Source: Candidatus Poribacteria bacterium (GTDB taxonomy: Bacteria; Poribacteria; WGA-4E; WGA-3G). Taken from it: a DNA stretch of 64,000 nucleotides. This document shows, in pieces, positions 3,353 to 11,041 of this stretch. The notes under the pieces are model-generated. The model worked only from the letters and a program-made list of their open reading frames with translations, did no database searches and was not told the origin of the DNA. The stretch covers positions 5,786 to 69,785 of the forward strand of contig JAJECK010000016.1 in NCBI GenBank assembly GCA_022822085.1, written 5' to 3'. The first letter of the stretch is position 1. The number at the start of each line of letters is the position of its first letter. Position numbers and translations under genes: made by a program.

Positions 3353-3913
3353 TTGTTATATTGCTCAAACAAACGAAATTTAAACGTTAATGAAACCCGT
3401 AGAACTAAAACACACGTTAAGAGAATAGGAACGGAGGGACAGTTCTTATCACCGTTGAAAGTGGAAGATTATCAGAAGCTTATATCGGCCCGGGATAAGT
3501 TAATCAATACCATTGGTACGGATGAAAATCATCCGTTAACTCCCTTGGCACACTTCATGGGGAACCTCATTGAGAAATACAAGGAGGACTCTAACGTGAA
3601 AACCAGAAATGAAACTTTAGACACAAACAAAAGTTTAGCAGATGCTGTTTTCAAACCGCATCGTCCTGAAAAAACAGGGCGTCCCGCCGATCTCCCGCGT
3701 TTGAAACTCGCGGACCTGTTAGCACAGGAACCCAACACAGATAGGTCCAGCAAGCCTGTTGAAACCCCTCCCAACCCGCATCGTCCTGAAAAAACAGGGC
3801 GTCCCGCCGATCTCCCGCGTTTGAAACTCGCGGACCTGTTAGCACAGGAACCCGAGCATGCAGCCTCATGTGAAACAGACACCGGACCAGCAGTAGGGCA
3901 TGAAGTGTGGTAG
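3353..3913 (+). CDS. MazF-associated antitoxin-like protein: HigA-N-terminus-like helical module plus a duplicated 40-aa C-terminal segment
   Basis: Sits directly upstream of mazF and overlaps it by 7 nt. The segment YQKLISARDKLINTIGTDENHPLTPLAHFMGNLIEKYKED aligns (17/40 identical) with the N-terminal module of ORF 7235. PHRPEKTGRPADLPRLKLADLLAQEP occurs twice. The start is uncertain; the TTG at 3455 (MKVEDYQ...) is plausible. Confidence 0.55.
   Translation: MLYCSNKRNLNVNETRRTKTHVKRIGTEGQFLSPLKVEDYQKLISARDKLINTIGTDENHPLTPLAHFMGNLIEKYKEDSNVKTRNETLDTNKSLADAVFKPHRPEKTGRPADLPRLKLADLLAQEPNTDRSSKPVETPPNPHRPEKTGRPADLPRLKLADLLAQEPEHAASCETDTGPAVGHEVW
3656..3853 (+). repeat. Perfect 78-bp direct repeat (3656-3733 and 3776-3853), period 120 bp, in frame inside the antitoxin-like gene
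   Basis: Direct comparison of lines 3661-3733 and 3781-3853 shows identical sequence: CCGCATCGTCCTGAAAAAACAGGGCGTCCCGCCGATCTCCCGCGTTTGAAACTCGCGGACCTGTTAGCACAGGAACCC. The 42-bp spacer is unique. Confidence 0.95.
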
Positions 3914-4278
3914 CAGCAGCTCATTACAATCCAAATTACATCCCAGTGCGAGGAGATGTAATAGGTATTGACTTCAGTCCGCAAGCAGGCAAAGAGATTT
4001 GGGATTGGCGACCGGCCCTTGTTCTCTCTTCTTGGGATTTTAACAGCACGAAAAATGCGGCGGTTATGTGCCCAATCACCAGTACAGGGAGAGGAGGGGC
4101 CTTTGAGGTTGAAATCCCGGAAGGTATAGACGTACAAGGTGTTATTCGGGCAGACCAGGTAAAGAGTCAAGATTGGCGGGAAAGAAGATCGGTGTTTTGG
4201 TGTGAGATGTCTGATGATACGGTAAATGCAGTTTCCCAGATAGTTGAAACAATTATATGGGGAGATCCGCAACCGTGA
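3907..4278 (+). CDS. mazF: Type II toxin, MazF/PemK family endoribonuclease
   Basis: IPVRGDVIGIDFSPQAGKEIWDWRPALVLS...AAVMCPITSTGRGGAFEVEIPEG..QGVIRADQVKSQDWRER matches the MazF/PemK pattern. GTG start overlaps the upstream ORF's stop. Confidence 0.85.
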   Translation: MVAAAHYNPNYIPVRGDVIGIDFSPQAGKEIWDWRPALVLSSWDFNSTKNAAVMCPITSTGRGGAFEVEIPEGIDVQGVIRADQVKSQDWRERRSVFWCEMSDDTVNAVSQIVETIIWGDPQP

Positions 4279-4481
4279 CAGGAAAAAGAGCAAGATGTAA
4301 GTGAGGGGTTGAGTTTAAGCGGCTAAAACAGAAATTAGACTAATTCTTTAAATGGCTGGGTAATCCGTGGAAATAGGACTGTTTCTGTAGGAACTATTCC
4401 ACTAATAATAAACTAATTTCAACCCACAAAATTATCTAACTTAAGTCACACCATCCTTAAGACACATTATCAGGAAAATCT

Positions 4482-5183
4482 GTGGACACAAAAACCCTAA
4501 TTGAACTCATAGAGAAGTTTGTGGATTCAGAGAAATCTGGAGAAGTTAAGGAAACTGTGCGGGAGGAACTACAGAATACCGAATTGTCTGTCATAGACAG
4601 AGCGATAATTAACGCTTACCTACTGCAACAAGATGGAAAAATAGAAGGTGCAATTGAAAAGTGGCATTCAATCGCAAATATAACAGAAGGAATAGAAAAC
4701 GAAATTGCCGCCTATGCCTGGTTTTCCATTGCATCCCTCCTTACACAAGACGATCAGAAAGAAGAGGCACTCTCCGCTTACGACAAATCACTCAATCTCA
4801 ATCCAAATTACGCTGTCACTTACAATGACCGAGGTGCTACGAAATCGCTGCTCGGACAGTTTGAGTCCGCAATTTCTGACTACGACGAAGCGATACGCCT
4901 AAAACCTGATTATGCGGATGCATATTACAACCGCGGAGGCGCGAAGAACGAACTAAAGCAATACGAACCCGCTATCGCTGATTATGATGAGGCGATACGC
5001 CTGGAACCAGACCACGCAGACGCATACTACAACCGCGGCATTGCAAAAGGTGAATTGAAGCAATATGAAGCTGCCATCGCTGACTATGACGAGGCGATAC
5101 GCCTAAAGCCTGATTATACAGATGCGTATTACAACCGAGGCACTGCAAAGAACGAAATTTACCACCATGAAGCCGCCCTATGA
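4482..5183 (+). CDS. TPR-repeat protein, N-terminal portion (probably the 5' part of one long TPR gene, 4482..6666)
   Basis: After a ~100-aa unique N-terminus, the 34-aa consensus AYYNRG.AK..L.QYE.AIADYDEAIRL.PDYA repeats. The ORF ends inside a repeat unit (..GTAKNEIYHHEAAL*), and the next ORF continues the same repeat in the +1 frame. Confidence 0.7.
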   Translation: MDTKTLIELIEKFVDSEKSGEVKETVREELQNTELSVIDRAIINAYLLQQDGKIEGAIEKWHSIANITEGIENEIAAYAWFSIASLLTQDDQKEEALSAYDKSLNLNPNYAVTYNDRGATKSLLGQFESAISDYDEAIRLKPDYADAYYNRGGAKNELKQYEPAIADYDEAIRLEPDHADAYYNRGIAKGELKQYEAAIADYDEAIRLKPDYTDAYYNRGTAKNEIYHHEAAL

Positions 5184-6666
5184 GGCTGCGATTGCCGACT
5201 TTGATGAAACAATTCGCCTTAAACCAGATGATGCTTCTGCCTATTCCAACCGAGGCTATGCAAAGAGCCAAATCAACCAACTTGAGGATGCAATTGCAGA
5301 CTGTAATGAGGCAGTCCGGTTAGATCCAACTTTGGCCGTAGCCTACAATAGGCGCGGGATTTTGAAGAGCGGGTTAGGACAGCACGAGCCTGCCATTGCT
5401 GACTATGATGAGACAATCCGATTGGATCCAGAGTATCACTTTGGCTATGCGAATCGGGGTCGTGAAAAAAACAAACTTGGGCAACATGAGTCTGCTATTT
5501 CTGATTTTGATGAAGCCATTAGGCTAAAACCGGATAACGCCAATGCTTATACCCACCGAGGTTTTGCAAAGGAAAAACTCGGACAACGGGAAGAGGCCGT
5601 AGCAGATTATGAAGAGGCGATTACTCGTTATGGTGAGTTAATTCGTATCAATCCAAATTCTGCCAATGCTTACCACTCGCGAGGATATGTAAAAGACGAC
5701 TTAGGACAATACGAGGCTGCGATTGCCGATTATGATGAGGCAATACGACTAAATCCAAATTACGTCACAGCATACGGCAATCGGGGATTTACGAAGAGAA
5801 AATTAGGTCAATATGAGGCTGCGATTGCTGACTATGATGAGGCAATACGACTAAATCCAAATCATGCTGTTGCCTACTACAATCGAGGTTTGGCGAAAAG
5901 ACAGTTAGGACAACATGAGGCTGCGATTGCTGATTATGATGAGGCAATACGACTAAATCCAGGCGATCCGGATCCGATAGATTACAACAGTCGAGGGTAT
6001 GCCAAAAGACTGTTGGGACAATATGAGGCTGCGATTACTGATTACGATGAGGCAATACGACTAAATCCAAATTATGCTCTTGCCTACAATAATCGTGGTT
6101 ACGTGAAGCAGTTGTTAGGACAATACGAGGCTGCTATCGCCGATTATGATGAGGTAATACGGTTAGATCCCAGTGCCGTACGATATAACAGCCGAGGTTA
6201 TATCAAAGAGAAACTTGGACAGCACGAAGACGCTCGTCCAGACTATGAACAGGCTGTCGATAACTATGATGAGCAGATTCGCCTTAAGCCAGATGATGAT
6301 GTCGCTTACCATGGCCGTGGACTTGCAAAGATACGGTTAGGCGAATTTGAGTCTGCGATTGCGGACTGTGATGAGGCAATACGTCTTGACCCAAGTACTT
6401 CAAGCACCTATAGCAATCGTGGCAGAGCAAAGAATGAATTAGAGCAATATGAGTCTTCCTTGATTGATTGTAATGAAGCGATCCGTCTCAAATCGGATAA
6501 TGCTTTTGCATACAAAAACCGAGGAATTGCATATACCGGATTAGGGCAGATTCAGGAAGCAAAATCGGATTATCAAACTGCGCTGAAGTTGTTAGAACAG
6601 GTCCGCAATGAAAGTCTCAAAGTCGAAATAGAGGAATTACTCCAAGAACTTGAGAACATCAAGTAG
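5167..6666 (+). CDS. TPR-repeat protein (continuation of 4482..5183 after a frame change; the ATG at 5167 is a possible independent start)
   Basis: About 14 highly regular TPR units (LGQYEAAIADYDEAIRLNPNYA.AY.NRG). The C-terminal tail ...LKLLEQVRNESLKVEIEELLQELENIK is paralogous to the end of ORF 7235..9112. Confidence 0.75.
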   Translation: MKPPYEAAIADFDETIRLKPDDASAYSNRGYAKSQINQLEDAIADCNEAVRLDPTLAVAYNRRGILKSGLGQHEPAIADYDETIRLDPEYHFGYANRGREKNKLGQHESAISDFDEAIRLKPDNANAYTHRGFAKEKLGQREEAVADYEEAITRYGELIRINPNSANAYHSRGYVKDDLGQYEAAIADYDEAIRLNPNYVTAYGNRGFTKRKLGQYEAAIADYDEAIRLNPNHAVAYYNRGLAKRQLGQHEAAIADYDEAIRLNPGDPDPIDYNSRGYAKRLLGQYEAAITDYDEAIRLNPNYALAYNNRGYVKQLLGQYEAAIADYDEVIRLDPSAVRYNSRGYIKEKLGQHEDARPDYEQAVDNYDEQIRLKPDDDVAYHGRGLAKIRLGEFESAIADCDEAIRLDPSTSSTYSNRGRAKNELEQYESSLIDCNEAIRLKSDNAFAYKNRGIAYTGLGQIQEAKSDYQTALKLLEQVRNESLKVEIEELLQELENIK

Positions 6667-6751
6667 AATCAATTAACTACGAAATTTAACGAACACCGAT
6701 ATGCGAAAACGGCATGATGTATACCCTTATCAAATTATCAAATCACTTTTC

Positions 6752-6780
6752 TTGCTACATAGGTCCTCGCGTGGTATAAT
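6752..6780 (+). promoter_or_regulatory. Sigma70-type promoter with extended -10, upstream of higB
   Basis: TTGCTA (6752-6757), a 17-nt spacer, then TGG-TATAAT (-10 at 6775-6780). It lies ~130 nt upstream of the higB ATG. Confidence 0.5.
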
Positions 6781-6910
6781 ATTAACGGTTTTGAGATGCG
6801 GATCTAATAAGATGGCGTAATTTTATCTTCACAGTGTCTACGGATCCTTTACTGGTATCCTAAGAATAGATGTAGACCTTAATATAACAAATACACTACA
6901 CGACTCTTTT

Positions 6911-7231
6911 ATGCAAATTGTTAGAGAAAATGAGTTGGCGAAATTTGCAGAGCAACATCCGAATACTCGCGCATCCCTCAACCATTGGGCGCAATTAATG
7001 AGAGAAGGAAGTTTCAAGTCAATTATTGACTTGCGAGAAACGTTCGGACGCGTTTCCCCGGTGAAGGTACGACCCAGAAGATTTAATCGTGATTCAATAA
7101 CATTAACAGTTTTCAACATTAGTGGCAACGATGCCCGTCTTATTGCAATTGTCCAATACTCGATGCAAACTGTGATTATTGATCAAGTGCTAACGCACAG
7201 CGAATACGATGCAGGAGATTGGAGAAAGTGA
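6911..7231 (+). CDS. higB: Type II toxin, HigB family (RelE-fold mRNA interferase, HigB_toxin type)
   Basis: 106 aa. ..LAKFAEQHPNTRASLNHWAQLMREGSFKSIIDLRETFG....TVFNISGNDARLIAIVQYSMQTVIIDQVLTHSEYDAGDW matches the remembered HigB pattern (...W....A.W.SP.D.K......S.....VFNI.GN.YRLI..I.Y....V.I..V.TH.EYD). Confidence 0.8.
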   Translation: MQIVRENELAKFAEQHPNTRASLNHWAQLMREGSFKSIIDLRETFGRVSPVKVRPRRFNRDSITLTVFNISGNDARLIAIVQYSMQTVIIDQVLTHSEYDAGDWRK

Positions 7232-7234
7232 CCT

Positions 7235-9112
7235 ATGTTAACTGAAAGACAACCTATACAGCATATATTGTCAAGGCCAATTTCCATGGAACTTAATGCC
7301 TTATTTGAGAAAACAAATATTAATGCGCTTCTCCAGGAACAAGCAATTGCTGAGTTCAGTTCCCAGCATCTACATACACTGATGTGGGAAATCGCACCTG
7401 AAGGGCCAAGTCCGCCTTCCAAACCTATGCAAACATCGGCACAGCAACAAGTTGAATCCGGTCCGTACCCAGAAAGCGACTACCAATGGCTTATAGAGGT
7501 GCTTGAAACATTAACCGATATAGTGGAGCGGAACGCAAACAACAACTTTGCTGCACTGCCCAAAGCCGACTATGAACAACTTGATGCAGTGTTAAAAGAG
7601 TTAATCTATACTGTTGGTGATAATGAAAAACATCCCTTGGCACCATTGATGGATTTCATCGGTGTCCTTATCTCACAGTATGAAGACGAACACTTTCCAA
7701 AATTGCCAGACCTATTCCCCGAACTAAAGGAAGGTGAAGAACCAAACGACACAAAAAATGAAAATCAACAAGATAACTCTACCAAGGAGTCGGAAAAACC
7801 TACAAAAGCACTTGTTGCGGAGGCTTTTTTTTCTATCGGTAACCTACTTTCGGATGGAGGTAAGACAGAAGAAGCGATCTCCGCTTATGATCAGGTGATA
7901 CAATTAAATCCTGAATATATAAATGCTTACTACAATCGTGGGAGAGCAAAAGGGATATTAGGTCAATATGAGGATGAGATCGCTGATCTTGATGAGGCAC
8001 TTCGACTCGAACCGAATTATGCAGAAATTTACCTCTTACGTGGCAGTGCCAATGTCGCACTGAATCATTATGAATCTGCAATTGCAGATATAGATAAAAG
8101 CATCCAATTAAATCTTGACAAGTCCATTGTTTATCTGGCAAGTTTCTTGCGTGGTTGTGCTAATGTTATGTTGACGCACCATAAATCTGCGATTGCCGAT
8201 TTTGATGAGACTCTCCGCCTCAAACCAGATCATGCTCAAGGGTACTTCAAGCGCGGGAGTGCAAGAATTGGATTAACACATTATAAAGCAGCAATTGCGG
8301 ATTTTGATAAAGGCCTCCAACTTGAACCAAATGACTCTGATGCCTATTTCCTAAGAGGCTATGCTAAACACAACATAGAACAAAACAAAGCTGCAATTGC
8401 AGATTTAGATGAAGCCCTCCGTCTCAACTCAAATTTTTTCGTAGCTCACTTTTTGAGAGGCACTATAAAATTTTTGCTTAATCAATATGAATCTGCGATT
8501 ATAGATTTAAACAACGGTATTCATCTCTATCCAGACTTTGCTGAAGCTTACGCGGTGAGGGGTTATGCAAAATATGTATTAAAACAATATGAAATGGCAA
8601 TCGCTGATTTTGACGAAACTATTAAGCTAAAACCAGACAATGCTGAAACTTACTCTTTGCGCGGCTATGTAAAATATAAACTGCACAAATATAATGCTGC
8701 GATCACTGATTTTGACGAAACTATTAAGCTAAAACCAGACAATGCTGAAGCTTATAACAATCGCGGACATCTGAAAAACAAAATTGGTCGATATGAATCC
8801 GCAATTACTGATTGCGATATATCACTTGAGATAGATCCAGATCACGCCTGGGCTTACACAAATCGTGGATATGCAAAAATTCAGTTAGGGCAGACTGAGT
8901 CTGCTTTGATAGACTGTGATAAGGCGATAAGTTTAGATCCGACTTTAGCTGAAGCCTACCATACCCGAGGTGAGGCGCAAATCCTCTTAGGCAAAACTCA
9001 GGAAGCAGAAACAGATTTCCAAAAAGCCTTAGAATTAGCAGAACAAGCAGAAAACCAAGAACTTATAGATGAAGTTAAACAATTACTCCAAGAACTTGAA
9101 AACACCGAGTAG
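7235..9112 (+). CDS. HigA-N-terminus-like module fused to a ~13-unit TPR array, in the antitoxin position downstream of higB
   Basis: The ATG is 3 nt after the higB stop. ADYEQLDAVLKELIYTVGDNEKHPLAPLMDFIGVLISQYEDEHFP resembles the helical segment that precedes the HTH in HigA-type antitoxins. No HTH follows. Instead there is an acidic linker and then TPR units (AYYNRGRAKGILGQYEDEIADLDEALRLEPNYAE...). Confidence 0.7.
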   Translation: MLTERQPIQHILSRPISMELNALFEKTNINALLQEQAIAEFSSQHLHTLMWEIAPEGPSPPSKPMQTSAQQQVESGPYPESDYQWLIEVLETLTDIVERNANNNFAALPKADYEQLDAVLKELIYTVGDNEKHPLAPLMDFIGVLISQYEDEHFPKLPDLFPELKEGEEPNDTKNENQQDNSTKESEKPTKALVAEAFFSIGNLLSDGGKTEEAISAYDQVIQLNPEYINAYYNRGRAKGILGQYEDEIADLDEALRLEPNYAEIYLLRGSANVALNHYESAIADIDKSIQLNLDKSIVYLASFLRGCANVMLTHHKSAIADFDETLRLKPDHAQGYFKRGSARIGLTHYKAAIADFDKGLQLEPNDSDAYFLRGYAKHNIEQNKAAIADLDEALRLNSNFFVAHFLRGTIKFLLNQYESAIIDLNNGIHLYPDFAEAYAVRGYAKYVLKQYEMAIADFDETIKLKPDNAETYSLRGYVKYKLHKYNAAITDFDETIKLKPDNAEAYNNRGHLKNKIGRYESAITDCDISLEIDPDHAWAYTNRGYAKIQLGQTESALIDCDKAISLDPTLAEAYHTRGEAQILLGKTQEAETDFQKALELAEQAENQELIDEVKQLLQELENTE

Positions 9113-9122
9113 AAGCGATTAA

Positions 9123-9893
9123 CTACGAAATCTCCGGTGGCGGTTCACCCACTGCAGACTCCCCGTCTCGCAACAACGGTTCTGCATTTCCCCACAATCG
9201 ACTCCCATCGTGTGACAGAAGTGGCTCTGCAGAATACTGTGCTAAATACGCTCTACGCATGGAATTTGTCGTATTTGTTCCGCTACTGTGGAAATTGACG
9301 CTTGTAAATGCAACGATACTCCCTGCAGGTACGATTGCTGCGACTCCCTTCTCCGGACCGAAATACCCCACCAGATCATTACTACCTTCCTCACGGATAT
9401 GTTTCACCCAAGAACGGATACCGATATGTGAATACGGCATGACATAGACAGTCCCATTCTCTTCAGACATATCATCAAGTGCACACCAACATGTCAAATA
9501 CGGTTTGTGATCAGGATAGCCGACGTAACCCGAATCCTGATGCCAACTGAATTTCATGCCAGCTTCTGCACCCTTGACAACATATTGCTCCCAAAATAGA
9601 TATGCATTGTTACCCAAGGTCGCGCGGCACACCTCTGCCATGAGTTCGCTGAACAGAAATTCGCGAAGTTTCGGTTGTTGCCTAAAGCAGTTCGAGACAA
9701 AGTAACGTTTATTACGATGATTAAGTCCCATCACATCCTTATTTTCGCGTTCCATCCGTTCATCCATTTGACTGATGAAATTTCCACATTCTCCGCGAAG
9801 CAATTCCAAAAGGTTTTCAGGAATCACACTTTCCAAAATGAAATATCCTTCCTCTTGGTACTGCTGTTTCTGTTCATCGGTAATGTTAATCAA
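9123..9893 (-). CDS. Phytanoyl-CoA dioxygenase (PhyH) family Fe(II)/2-oxoglutarate oxygenase
   Basis: ..EQKQQYQEEGYFILESVIP.., FSWHQDSGY, HSSGTNTTNSMRRAY. The track start at 9950 overlaps the upstream gene. A TTG at 9893, preceded by AGGAG 8 nt upstream, is the more likely start. Confidence 0.75.
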   Translation of the reverse strand: MINITDEQKQQYQEEGYFILESVIPENLLELLRGECGNFISQMDERMERENKDVMGLNHRNKRYFVSNCFRQQPKLREFLFSELMAEVCRATLGNNAYLFWEQYVVKGAEAGMKFSWHQDSGYVGYPDHKPYLTCWCALDDMSEENGTVYVMPYSHIGIRSWVKHIREEGSNDLVGYFGPEKGVAAIVPAGSIVAFTSVNFHSSGTNTTNSMRRAYLAQYSAEPLLSHDGSRLWGNAEPLLRDGESAVGEPPPEIS

Positions 9894-9904
9894 ATTGGGT
9901 TCTC

Positions 9905-11041
9905 CTATTCTATGTTTATTTTGCGTACAACCTGTCCGTTGCTTTCCCAATAGGTATGTTTACCCTTGATGTAGTCTGAATCTCCTGCAGGTTGGATATT
10001 CCCCTTCGTATCAATAGCACGCGAGACGATTGTATGTTCACCTTTTGAAGGGTTCTCCCAATTGAGATGCCAGATTTTCCAAGCGTATTCAGCATCTTCT
10101 TCAGGGTCTATCGTAGCGATTTGCCAAGGTCCACCATCAATACTAACTTCTACTCTATCAATGGGAGCACCCCATGCAGCACCGTAGATACGGTATTCAT
10201 CATTGTAGACCGTAACTTTTGCTGCTAACGATTTCAACTGGGTTCTGCCAACAGATGTTTCCATCCATACAGTTTCACCATCAGGTCGGGTTTCTTTACG
10301 CATGGTCACATAATCGCGTGCCATGAATCTACCCATAAACCGTGTGTTCCGCACTTCTATCCGTTTAAGCCATTTGACACATGCAATTCCATACCAACCA
10401 GGTGCGATCAGTCGAAGAGGGGCACCGTTGTCATGAGGTAATGAAACACCGTTCATTTCGTAACATAACAAATTCGTGTCTTCTAATGCGTCCTCTACAG
10501 ACATACTTCTGGCAAAGTTCTGCTGCATCGTAACTTTTCTCAAATTTTCTTTACCTGAATCATGCCCGAAAAATATCACTTCTATGCCATCCTCTTTTAT
10601 GCCTGCTTCTTTGAGGATAGGCGCGAGTGGTGTTCCACCCCATTTTGCAGTGCCAATAGCCCCTGTAAATGTCGGGAAACCGTGGTTACCAGAGCATTCC
10701 AATGTAAAGGTTACATCCTGCTTTGGTCTTGCTTTGATGTCATCAATTGTGAGCATCATCGGATTTTCAACTAACCCGCTAATTTCCAATTTCCAATTTT
10801 CAAGATCAACTGCCGGTTTCCCATAATGTGATACATTGAAGAATTGATCATTCGGTGTAATGAAAGAATCAAATTTATTCCAATCAAGCAAAACACGATT
10901 TGATGAAGAATTGGGTGGTTGGTCCAAAAAGGGAATTAGTTTTTCACCTTCAATTTTGGGAAATGCATGAATCGCCCATGGGCTGAGCATAAATGCAGTT
11001 AACGTTAAGCCACTGCTTCTTAAAAAATCTCTGCGCTCCAT
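9905..11041 (-). CDS. Tat-exported molybdopterin oxidoreductase of the sulfite oxidase family (SorA-like)
   Basis: Twin-arginine signal MERRDFLRSSGLTLTAFML. Mo-ligand context TLECSGNHG. The C-terminal dimerisation-domain pattern is present (...YRIYGAAWGAPIDRVEVSIDGGPWQ). Confidence 0.75.
   Translation of the reverse strand: MERRDFLRSSGLTLTAFMLSPWAIHAFPKIEGEKLIPFLDQPPNSSSNRVLLDWNKFDSFITPNDQFFNVSHYGKPAVDLENWKLEISGLVENPMMLTIDDIKARPKQDVTFTLECSGNHGFPTFTGAIGTAKWGGTPLAPILKEAGIKEDGIEVIFFGHDSGKENLRKVTMQQNFARSMSVEDALEDTNLLCYEMNGVSLPHDNGAPLRLIAPGWYGIACVKWLKRIEVRNTRFMGRFMARDYVTMRKETRPDGETVWMETSVGRTQLKSLAAKVTVYNDEYRIYGAAWGAPIDRVEVSIDGGPWQIATIDPEEDAEYAWKIWHLNWENPSKGEHTIVSRAIDTKGNIQPAGDSDYIKGKHTYWESNGQVVRKINIE

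Follow-up and report, generated by a model that had tools for sequence, protein, structure and literature searches.

A HigB-type toxin gene of Candidatus Poribacteria is followed by a gene for a HigA-like module fused to a TPR array

Background

Type II antitoxins normally consist of a toxin-binding element and a DNA-binding domain, and recent work on CapRel and on toxin-antitoxin-chaperone (TAC) systems shows that phage proteins may be sensed through elements associated with the antitoxin. PD-λ-2, as Vassallo et al. are said to have reported in 2022, is a HigBAC toxin-antitoxin-chaperone defense system. Here, we analyzed a 64,000-nt stretch of a genome of Candidatus Poribacteria, a group of sponge symbionts (GenBank assembly GCA_022822085.1, contig JAJECK010000016.1, positions 5,786 to 69,785 of the forward strand; hereafter the window, to which all coordinates refer), in which a higB toxin gene (6911..7231) is followed by a partner gene (7235..9112) whose product joins a HigA-like module to an array of tetratricopeptide repeats (TPR).

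The first described system to which this pair can be compared is HigB-HigA of E. coli K-12 (YgjN-YgjM; PDB 5IFG, 5YCL, 6KML), where HigA wraps HigB with two helices and carries a helix-turn-helix (HTH) domain at its C-terminus (PMC7984235). Both loci have a toxin of the same family (PF09907) and the toxin-first order, the window genes lying on the same strand with a gap of 3 nt, and the module of the window partner is homologous, as judged by sequence profiles, to the N-terminal HigB-wrapping domain of HigA. In contrast to HigA, the window partner has no HTH, and hence no operator binding or HTH-mediated dimerization of the HigA type; the position of the HTH is filled by a disordered linker, 12 TPR units, and a capping helix. 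The toxins differ as well, as the window HigB has an insertion and an Asp at the position of R83. The locus thus agrees with HigBA in toxin family, gene order, and the toxin-binding domain of the antitoxin, and departs from it in lacking the DNA-binding HTH.

In HigBAC of E. coli NT1F31, HigA has a C-terminal extension that a chaperone holds, and the toxin is triggered when gpV of phage lambda competes for this chaperone (bioRxiv 10.1101/2024.02.24.581848). The window HigB matches the PADLOC model of this type (PD-Lambda-2_A), and its partner can be likened to HigA of HigBAC in that a C-terminal extension would tie toxin control to a protein-protein interaction, which in HigBAC is the phage-sensing point. 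However, HigBAC has a SecB-like third gene that the window locus lacks, and its extension is the disordered, aggregation-prone ChAD, whereas that of the window partner is a TPR solenoid modeled as folded (pLDDT 90-98) within the same chain. Because it has neither a chaperone gene nor a disordered ChAD, the locus is not a member of the HigBAC class; by analogy, its closest functional match would be a HigBA pair with an antitoxin coupled to a protein-protein interaction, the arrangement seen in HigBAC.

Two further comparisons are of use. Stand-alone, HTH-less mini-HigA proteins (about 60-80 aa; labeled ‘antitoxin HigA’ in JGI/IMG) are environmentally widespread and have the same module and the same HigB family directly upstream, with a 3-nt junction in many cases and a 4-nt or overlapping one otherwise; to these, the window partner adds a 75-aa leader, the linker, and the TPR array. 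CapRel(SJ46) sensor antitoxins (PMC9712102) would share the concept of an antitoxin element doubling as a direct protein sensor, a likeness in logic only, as CapRel(SJ46) is a single toxin-antitoxin chain with a different toxin fold and no repeats, while toxin and antitoxin are separate genes in the window. A literature search for HigA-TPR or antitoxin-TPR fusions found no description of one, which agrees with an earlier note on this DNA that knew of no description of the architecture.

Results

Homology of the partner module to HigA

A first homology search with residues 1-176 of the partner returned 20 close relatives, some of them module-only and some with short TPR arrays, with a conserved core at about residues 80-165, and a profile search with this core gathered 520 proteins at E ≤ 1e-3. 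The module profile matched a bridge protein (P0161, 132 aa; E 7e-10) that aligns over its full length with the solved HigA antitoxin 5IFG_B (E 1e-9), and homologs of which carry the HTH domain PF01381 and are named ‘HTH-type transcriptional regulator/antitoxin HigA’. Set against 13 full-length HigA proteins homologous to P0161 (PF01381 annotated in 6 of the 13), 65 modules gave an hhalign probability of 99.5% and an E-value of 7.6e-23 over 64 columns, pairing module positions 20-83 with HigA positions 17-80. In BLASTP, the window module was 45% identical to P0175 over 56 aa. As the HTH of E. coli HigA is C-terminal and the wrapping is done by two helices (PMC7984235), the region homologous to the module is the toxin-binding end. 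On this profile evidence, partner residues about 80-160 correspond by homology to the N-terminal domain with which E. coli K-12-type HigA wraps HigB. The earlier note had proposed a likeness to HigA for residues 110-155 only; the homology is real, but it extends over a three-helix unit at about residues 80-160.

The structural comparison that the earlier note had suggested did not recover this relationship. AlphaFold2 (AF2) modeled the module confidently as three helices (pLDDT 87.4), but Foldseek with this model against the PDB found no HigA and nothing significant (best E 3.7), and searches of PDB sequences with the module (phmmer with residues 1-202; profiles A2 and A4) had no HigA match either. 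The chance PDB matches of the module were to designed Kelch-like repeat proteins and were set aside as uninformative. We did not take the Foldseek result as a refutation, because the module is a short three-helix unit and the HigA chains in the PDB include the HTH and were solved wrapped around HigB. The claim of homology therefore rests on sequence profiles and not on a comparison of folds.

Architecture of the locus

The features of the locus, all on the forward strand, are as follows.

6752..6780 (+): putative sigma-70-type promoter of the higB operon (TTGCTA, 17-nt spacer, TG-extended TATAAT; 10 of 12 matches)
6801..6813 (+): GATCTAA..AGAT element of the 5' leader, close behind the -10 box (columns conserved among the 8 aligned species)
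6911..7231 (+): higB, coding for a 106-aa RelE-fold HigB toxin (PF09907)
7061..7099 (+): 11-aa insertion in HigB (13-aa segment VKVRPRRFNRDSI, aa 51-63; residue comparison)
7181..7183 (+): Asp91 of HigB, at a family-invariant Arg position
7221..7225 (+): Shine-Dalgarno-like motif GGAGA, inside the 3' end of higB and 9 nt upstream of the partner ATG
7235..9112 (+): partner gene, putative antitoxin of 625 aa with a HigA N-terminal-like module and a TPR array (open reading frame and domain content)
7235..7459 (+): leader, aa 1-75, predicted to be disordered (pLDDT <50)
7460..7732 (+): HigA N-terminal-domain-like module, aa 76-166, putative HigB-binding/neutralizing element (profile search, hhalign, BLASTP, AF2)
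7733..7801 (+): acidic/polar linker, aa 167-189 (aa 167-186 at pLDDT <50, modeled as disordered)
7802..9046 (+): 12 TPR units (24 helices), aa 190-604 (AF2 pLDDT about 90-98)
9047..9109 (+): C-terminal capping helix (…LAEQAENQELIDEVKQLLQELENTE), aa 608-623 (AF2 helix)

The full-length partner was modeled with a mean pLDDT of 82.7, and in this model a disordered leader, the three-helix module (helices 80-99, 110-127, and 136-153; pLDDT about 88), a disordered linker, 12 TPR units, and the cap follow one another. The array had been counted as 13 units from the letters; with 24 helices plus one, it corresponds to 12 units and a capping helix. TPR families cover residues of about 195-605 (TPR_1, E 2.5e-67) and the DNA coding for them has a tandem periodicity of 102 nt, while residues 1-202 had no match to Pfam or NCBIfam models. 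No HTH family was found in the 625-aa partner or in 143 of its relatives, so that an acidic linker and a TPR solenoid do stand in place of the HTH, as had been proposed. An NTPase (NACHT/NB-ARC) of the STAND/Avs type was not found in the partner, which has TPR families only and generic TPR hits in PADLOC. The capping tail recurs in fusion relatives and in the TPR open reading frame (ORF) of the window that ends at 6666.

The product of higB is a member of the PF09907 HigB toxin family (E 2.2e-19, 69.9 bits with a cut-off of 27), aligns end to end with the solved E. coli/Shigella HigB chains 5IFG_A and 5YCL_B (E about 1e-6), and is matched by the PADLOC model PD-Lambda-2_A at E 1.9e-15. It is thus the 106-aa RelE-fold toxin that the earlier note had recognized, though not a ‘standard’ one. 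The 11-aa insertion is basic and lineage-specific, and an insertion at the same position is also present in other TPR-linked Poribacteria HigBs. Asp91 replaces an Arg that is found in E. coli HigB (R83) and in 39 of 39 compared HigBs with stand-alone partners; it is shared by 83% of the TPR-linked Poribacteria HigBs, with glutamate instead in loci L015 and L016. By residue comparison, Ser49 replaces an invariant Asp, and N69, G72, R76, T95, H96, E98, Y99, and D100 are retained; the motifs FN.GGN..R and TH.EYD, common to E. coli HigB, are intact. A literature search for the catalytic residues of PF09907 HigB found no residue-level data.

Distribution and decay of the gene pair in Poribacteria

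A survey of HigB neighbors for TPR fusions had been suggested, and it revealed a conserved pair of HigB and module-TPR genes. Scanning one genome per species yielded 22 loci, 20 of them titled Candidatus or uncultured Poribacteria, with the best 96% identical. In nine of them (L002, L003, L005-L009, L013, L014), a module-TPR protein of 440-739 aa comes right after an intact 106-aa HigB with an identical junction (stop, 3 nt, ATG), and in two more (L015, L016) a more divergent HigB is followed, after a 6-nt gap, by a 284-aa fusion; an intact HigB thus stands directly before a module-TPR fusion in at least 11 Poribacteria genome loci. A further Poribacteria locus (L022) has a HigB that keeps the Arg and a 106-aa module-only protein. 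Mean identities among 10 orthologs were 87% for HigB, 78% for the module, 59% for the leader, 51% for the linker, and 59% for the TPR array, and the array comprised between about 7 and about 15.5 TPR units. The linker is 29-30 aa long in all orthologs, and the cap at the C-terminus is conserved. The flanks are syntenic, with a peptidase S13 gene upstream and genes for PhyH, a molybdopterin oxidoreductase, and a superoxide dismutase (SOD) downstream.

The two genes do not decay alike. The module is intact in each of the 12 Poribacteria loci whose HigB is intact, while HigB was truncated, frameshifted, fused, deleted, or absent with the module persisting in seven cases (L001, L004, L010, L012, L017, P0010, P0016); loss of the module with HigB retained was never seen among the loci surveyed. 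This asymmetry is what addiction to a toxin and its antitoxin predicts. P0010 and P0016 were considered as natural, complete HigB-HigA fusions and rejected, as they are deletion derivatives with only the first ~20 residues of HigB. The TPR part is broken or truncated in L001 and L011.

Further relatives of the module

Divergent fusion subfamilies, with modules 40-55% identical to that of the window, were found directly after a HigB_toxin gene in three metagenome loci, which together hold four such pairs (two in tandem in L104, one each in L108 and L109). All module-TPR fusions with a named source genome are from Poribacteria, and the remainder come from metagenome assemblies. The two pairs in L104 (1528-5311) are paralogous and share a contig; the terminal tail of the second fusion (KKPRRGxQWKGKVKIAEDFDELPESF) bears a weak likeness to DUF2281, an antitoxin-type motif (E 0.017 for the near-identical tail of P0034; P0034, P0036). 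This tail hints at scaffolds that bear more than one toxin-binding element. In L108 (3001-4092; P0026, a 54-member cluster) and L017 (66-1244), the module is followed by 1-2 TPR units and a C-terminal HSDR_N_2-like, restriction-endonuclease-like domain (E 0.0012), and the fusion of this kind in L108 lies directly after a HigB_toxin gene.

The module is also frequent on its own. A metagenome scan with a module-only alignment (A6) detected at least 426 loci, of which 80 were fetched (L024-L103) and 67 had enough upstream sequence; in 48 of these 67, a HigB-like ORF lies directly upstream of a module-only protein of ~75 aa. No HigA-type HTH ORF was found in the flanks of the fetched loci, except at the canonical HigA locus L023, and JGI labels two of the stand-alone modules (66-69 aa) as ‘antitoxin HigA’. 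As the module alone is the usual partner of this branch of HigB, it is probably sufficient as an antitoxin, judging from the conserved gene pairing. Orphan module-only genes without HigB were seen in four loci (L018-L021, at about 3845-4333 in each); that of L019 adjoins a DNA methyltransferase-like ORF and that of L020 type I restriction-modification-like genes (both from reading of ORF translations only), and that of L021 a membrane-anchored TPR protein.

Promoter, gene junction, and leader

The promoter-like site at 6752..6780, which had been put forward as a strong promoter of higB, is the best match within 6500-9400, and the TTG of its -35 and the TATAAT with the TG just upstream are invariant in an alignment of 8 Poribacteria species in which the surrounding spacer diverges. 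No operator-like inverted repeat of ≥8 nt was found around it (6660-6915). The conserved GATCTAA..AGAT element may act as the operator of an unlinked regulator or as an element of the 5' untranslated region (UTR).

The higB stop TGA (7229-7231) is followed by CCT and, in the same frame, by the ATG at 7235, so the coordinates of the 625-aa ORF given earlier hold. There is no third gene on the same strand; the next ORF (9123..9950, minus strand) is PhyH-like and orthologous to the PhyH gene of L001.

Leader residues 1-75 are weakly constrained. Difference rates at the three codon positions were 0.21/0.20/0.275 for residues 1-40 and 0.22/0.17/0.32 for residues 41-75, compared with 0.15/0.076/0.23 for the module, yet the reading frame is open in 10 orthologs and its indels are in frame. 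A short leader segment (LLQEQAIAEFSSQHLHT, aa 32-48, 7328..7378) is identical to HigB residues 3-19 at 6 of 17 positions (pairwise E 0.013), and may be a remnant of a duplicated 5' end of higB or a chance similarity; as the similarity is weak (E 0.013 over 17 aa), the former was not adopted.

Neighboring genes

A second toxin-antitoxin pair, with a 7-nt overlap, lies upstream in the window (3353..3913 and 3907..4278, both +). The latter ORF is a MazF/PemK toxin gene (PF02452, E 1.4e-17), and the former codes for a 186-aa protein with a HigA-N-like module (hhalign probability 98.1%, E 6.8e-14) and two C-terminal repeats of ~28 aa (KPHRPEKTGRPADLPRLKLADLLAQEP). A module-plus-repeats protein also precedes PemK genes in L110. 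The MazF-linked modules have a degenerate YEDEH.P end and added C-terminal tandem repeats. Since such proteins precede MazF/PemK genes both in the window and in L110, the HigA-N module has been reused in MazF-linked antitoxins.

Between this pair and higB, a large TPR gene is apparently split into two overlapping ORFs in different frames (4482..5183 and 5122..6666, both +) by a frameshift near 5165-5180, and it ends in the same ELLQELEN cap as the HigB partner. The upstream TPR gene and the MazF pair are absent from the syntenic loci L001 and L010, so together they resemble inserted DNA flanked by the peptidase S13 gene and higB.

Discussion

We favor, with moderate confidence, the explanation that the locus is a type II toxin-antitoxin operon of the HigBA family with a rebuilt antitoxin, in which the module neutralizes HigB and the TPR array serves as a protein-binding platform, either as a sensor of a trigger or as a stabilizer. 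From sequence we infer both the neutralization and the control through a protein-protein scaffold or sensor. The operon would be transcribed from the conserved promoter at 6752-6780, its two genes being translationally coupled, and the module would bind HigB 1:1 and keep it off the ribosome. Lacking a DNA-binding domain, the partner would be unable to control its own operon in the manner of canonical HigA. The TPR array would bind another protein, which may come from a phage or another foreign source or be a host factor, and this binding would set the availability or the stability of the antitoxin; loss, capture, or displacement of the bound protein would then free HigB, with cleavage of translated mRNA and growth arrest as the outcome.

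Several observations weigh against this explanation. Neither the structure search nor the PDB sequence searches linked the module to HigA, and the occurrence of the module next to MazF means that it may have a role other than binding HigB. The activity of HigB may be altered or weak, given Asp91 and Ser49 at otherwise invariant positions and the 11-aa insertion. The locus is syntenic and chromosomal and does not lie in an obvious defense island. TPR proteins abound in Poribacteria, and with a similar TPR gene immediately upstream, the fusion could have arisen as an incidental accretion of domains.

A stronger form of the favored explanation, tentative and in our view doubtful as a whole, makes the TPR solenoid a built-in trigger sensor and the partner a single-chain ‘antitoxin-receptor’. 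A phage, sponge-host, or foreign protein bound by the fast-evolving, length-variable array would pull the module off HigB or destabilize it, the RNase would be freed, and infection would be aborted or growth arrested. Poribacteria would then have repeatedly diversified such pairs as programmable sensors, to which the tandem paralogous pairs and the nuclease-like or DUF2281-like ends would belong.

The alternative that survives best, to which we give about the same limited weight as to the sensor, is an ordinary toxin-antitoxin pair with a passenger: the module would neutralize HigB just as a ~75-aa mini-HigA would, and the TPR array would be a lineage-specific accretion that at most makes the antitoxin larger, more stable, or dimeric. 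The usual pairing of this HigB branch with the module alone fits this well, as do the TPR genes with the same capping tail that adjoin the pair (4482..6666) and occur in L021 and L111, the wide drift in unit number and the low identity of the array, which are as expected under relaxed constraint, and the broken or truncated arrays of L001 and L011. Against it, at least 11 species-level Poribacteria genomes and several subfamilies (those with modules 40-55% identical) retain the fusion, each with its own HigB, the length of the linker and the cap are conserved, and the reading frames of the TPR ORFs are open over 260-550 aa, an argument for selection acting on the array.

We regard it as unlikely that the pair has been domesticated into a non-toxic one, with the ribosome-dependent RNase activity of HigB lost or changed and the module recruiting HigB into a TPR-organized complex with another function. 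The replacements of the invariant Arg (by Asp91, in the window and in 83% of the TPR-linked Poribacteria HigBs) and of the invariant Asp (by Ser49), the lineage-specific insertion, the standing of HigB as the most conserved part (87% identity), and the stable chromosomal synteny would all suit such a role. However, both HigB motifs are intact, L022 combines the Arg with a module-only partner within Poribacteria, and HigB has been repeatedly deleted or truncated while the module survived, never the reverse, an asymmetry that toxicity predicts.

Least probable is a wrong gene model, which the earlier note had itself raised for the first ~100 codons and in which the first 65-75 codons would be an untranslated spacer with the true start near Met65 (7427), or a small antitoxin would have been overlooked: the leader is indeed predicted to be disordered and almost free of codon-position bias over residues 1-40, and P0008, P0009, and P0014 are called from a later Met or without most of the leader, yet the frame is open from the ATG 3 nt past the higB stop in 10 orthologs with in-frame indels, GGAGA lies 9 nt upstream of 7235, the ORF list for 6667-7460 has no other plausible small antitoxin ORF (its one entry being antisense inside higB), and the module-TPR fusion would be unaffected even by a later start.

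Under the favored explanation, several diverged lineages would have conserved the pairing of a well-studied toxin family with an antitoxin in which a classical protein-recognition scaffold, its repeat number varying between species, takes the place of the DNA-binding domain. The HTH-less HigA of ~75 aa is a common HigB partner in the metagenomes scanned, which raises the question of how operons with no DNA-binding antitoxin are regulated. Should the TPR array control the release of HigB, the pair would offer a simple, dissectable case of ligand-gated toxin activation, and a function could be assigned to part of the ‘eukaryote-like’ TPR proteins in which sponge symbionts abound.

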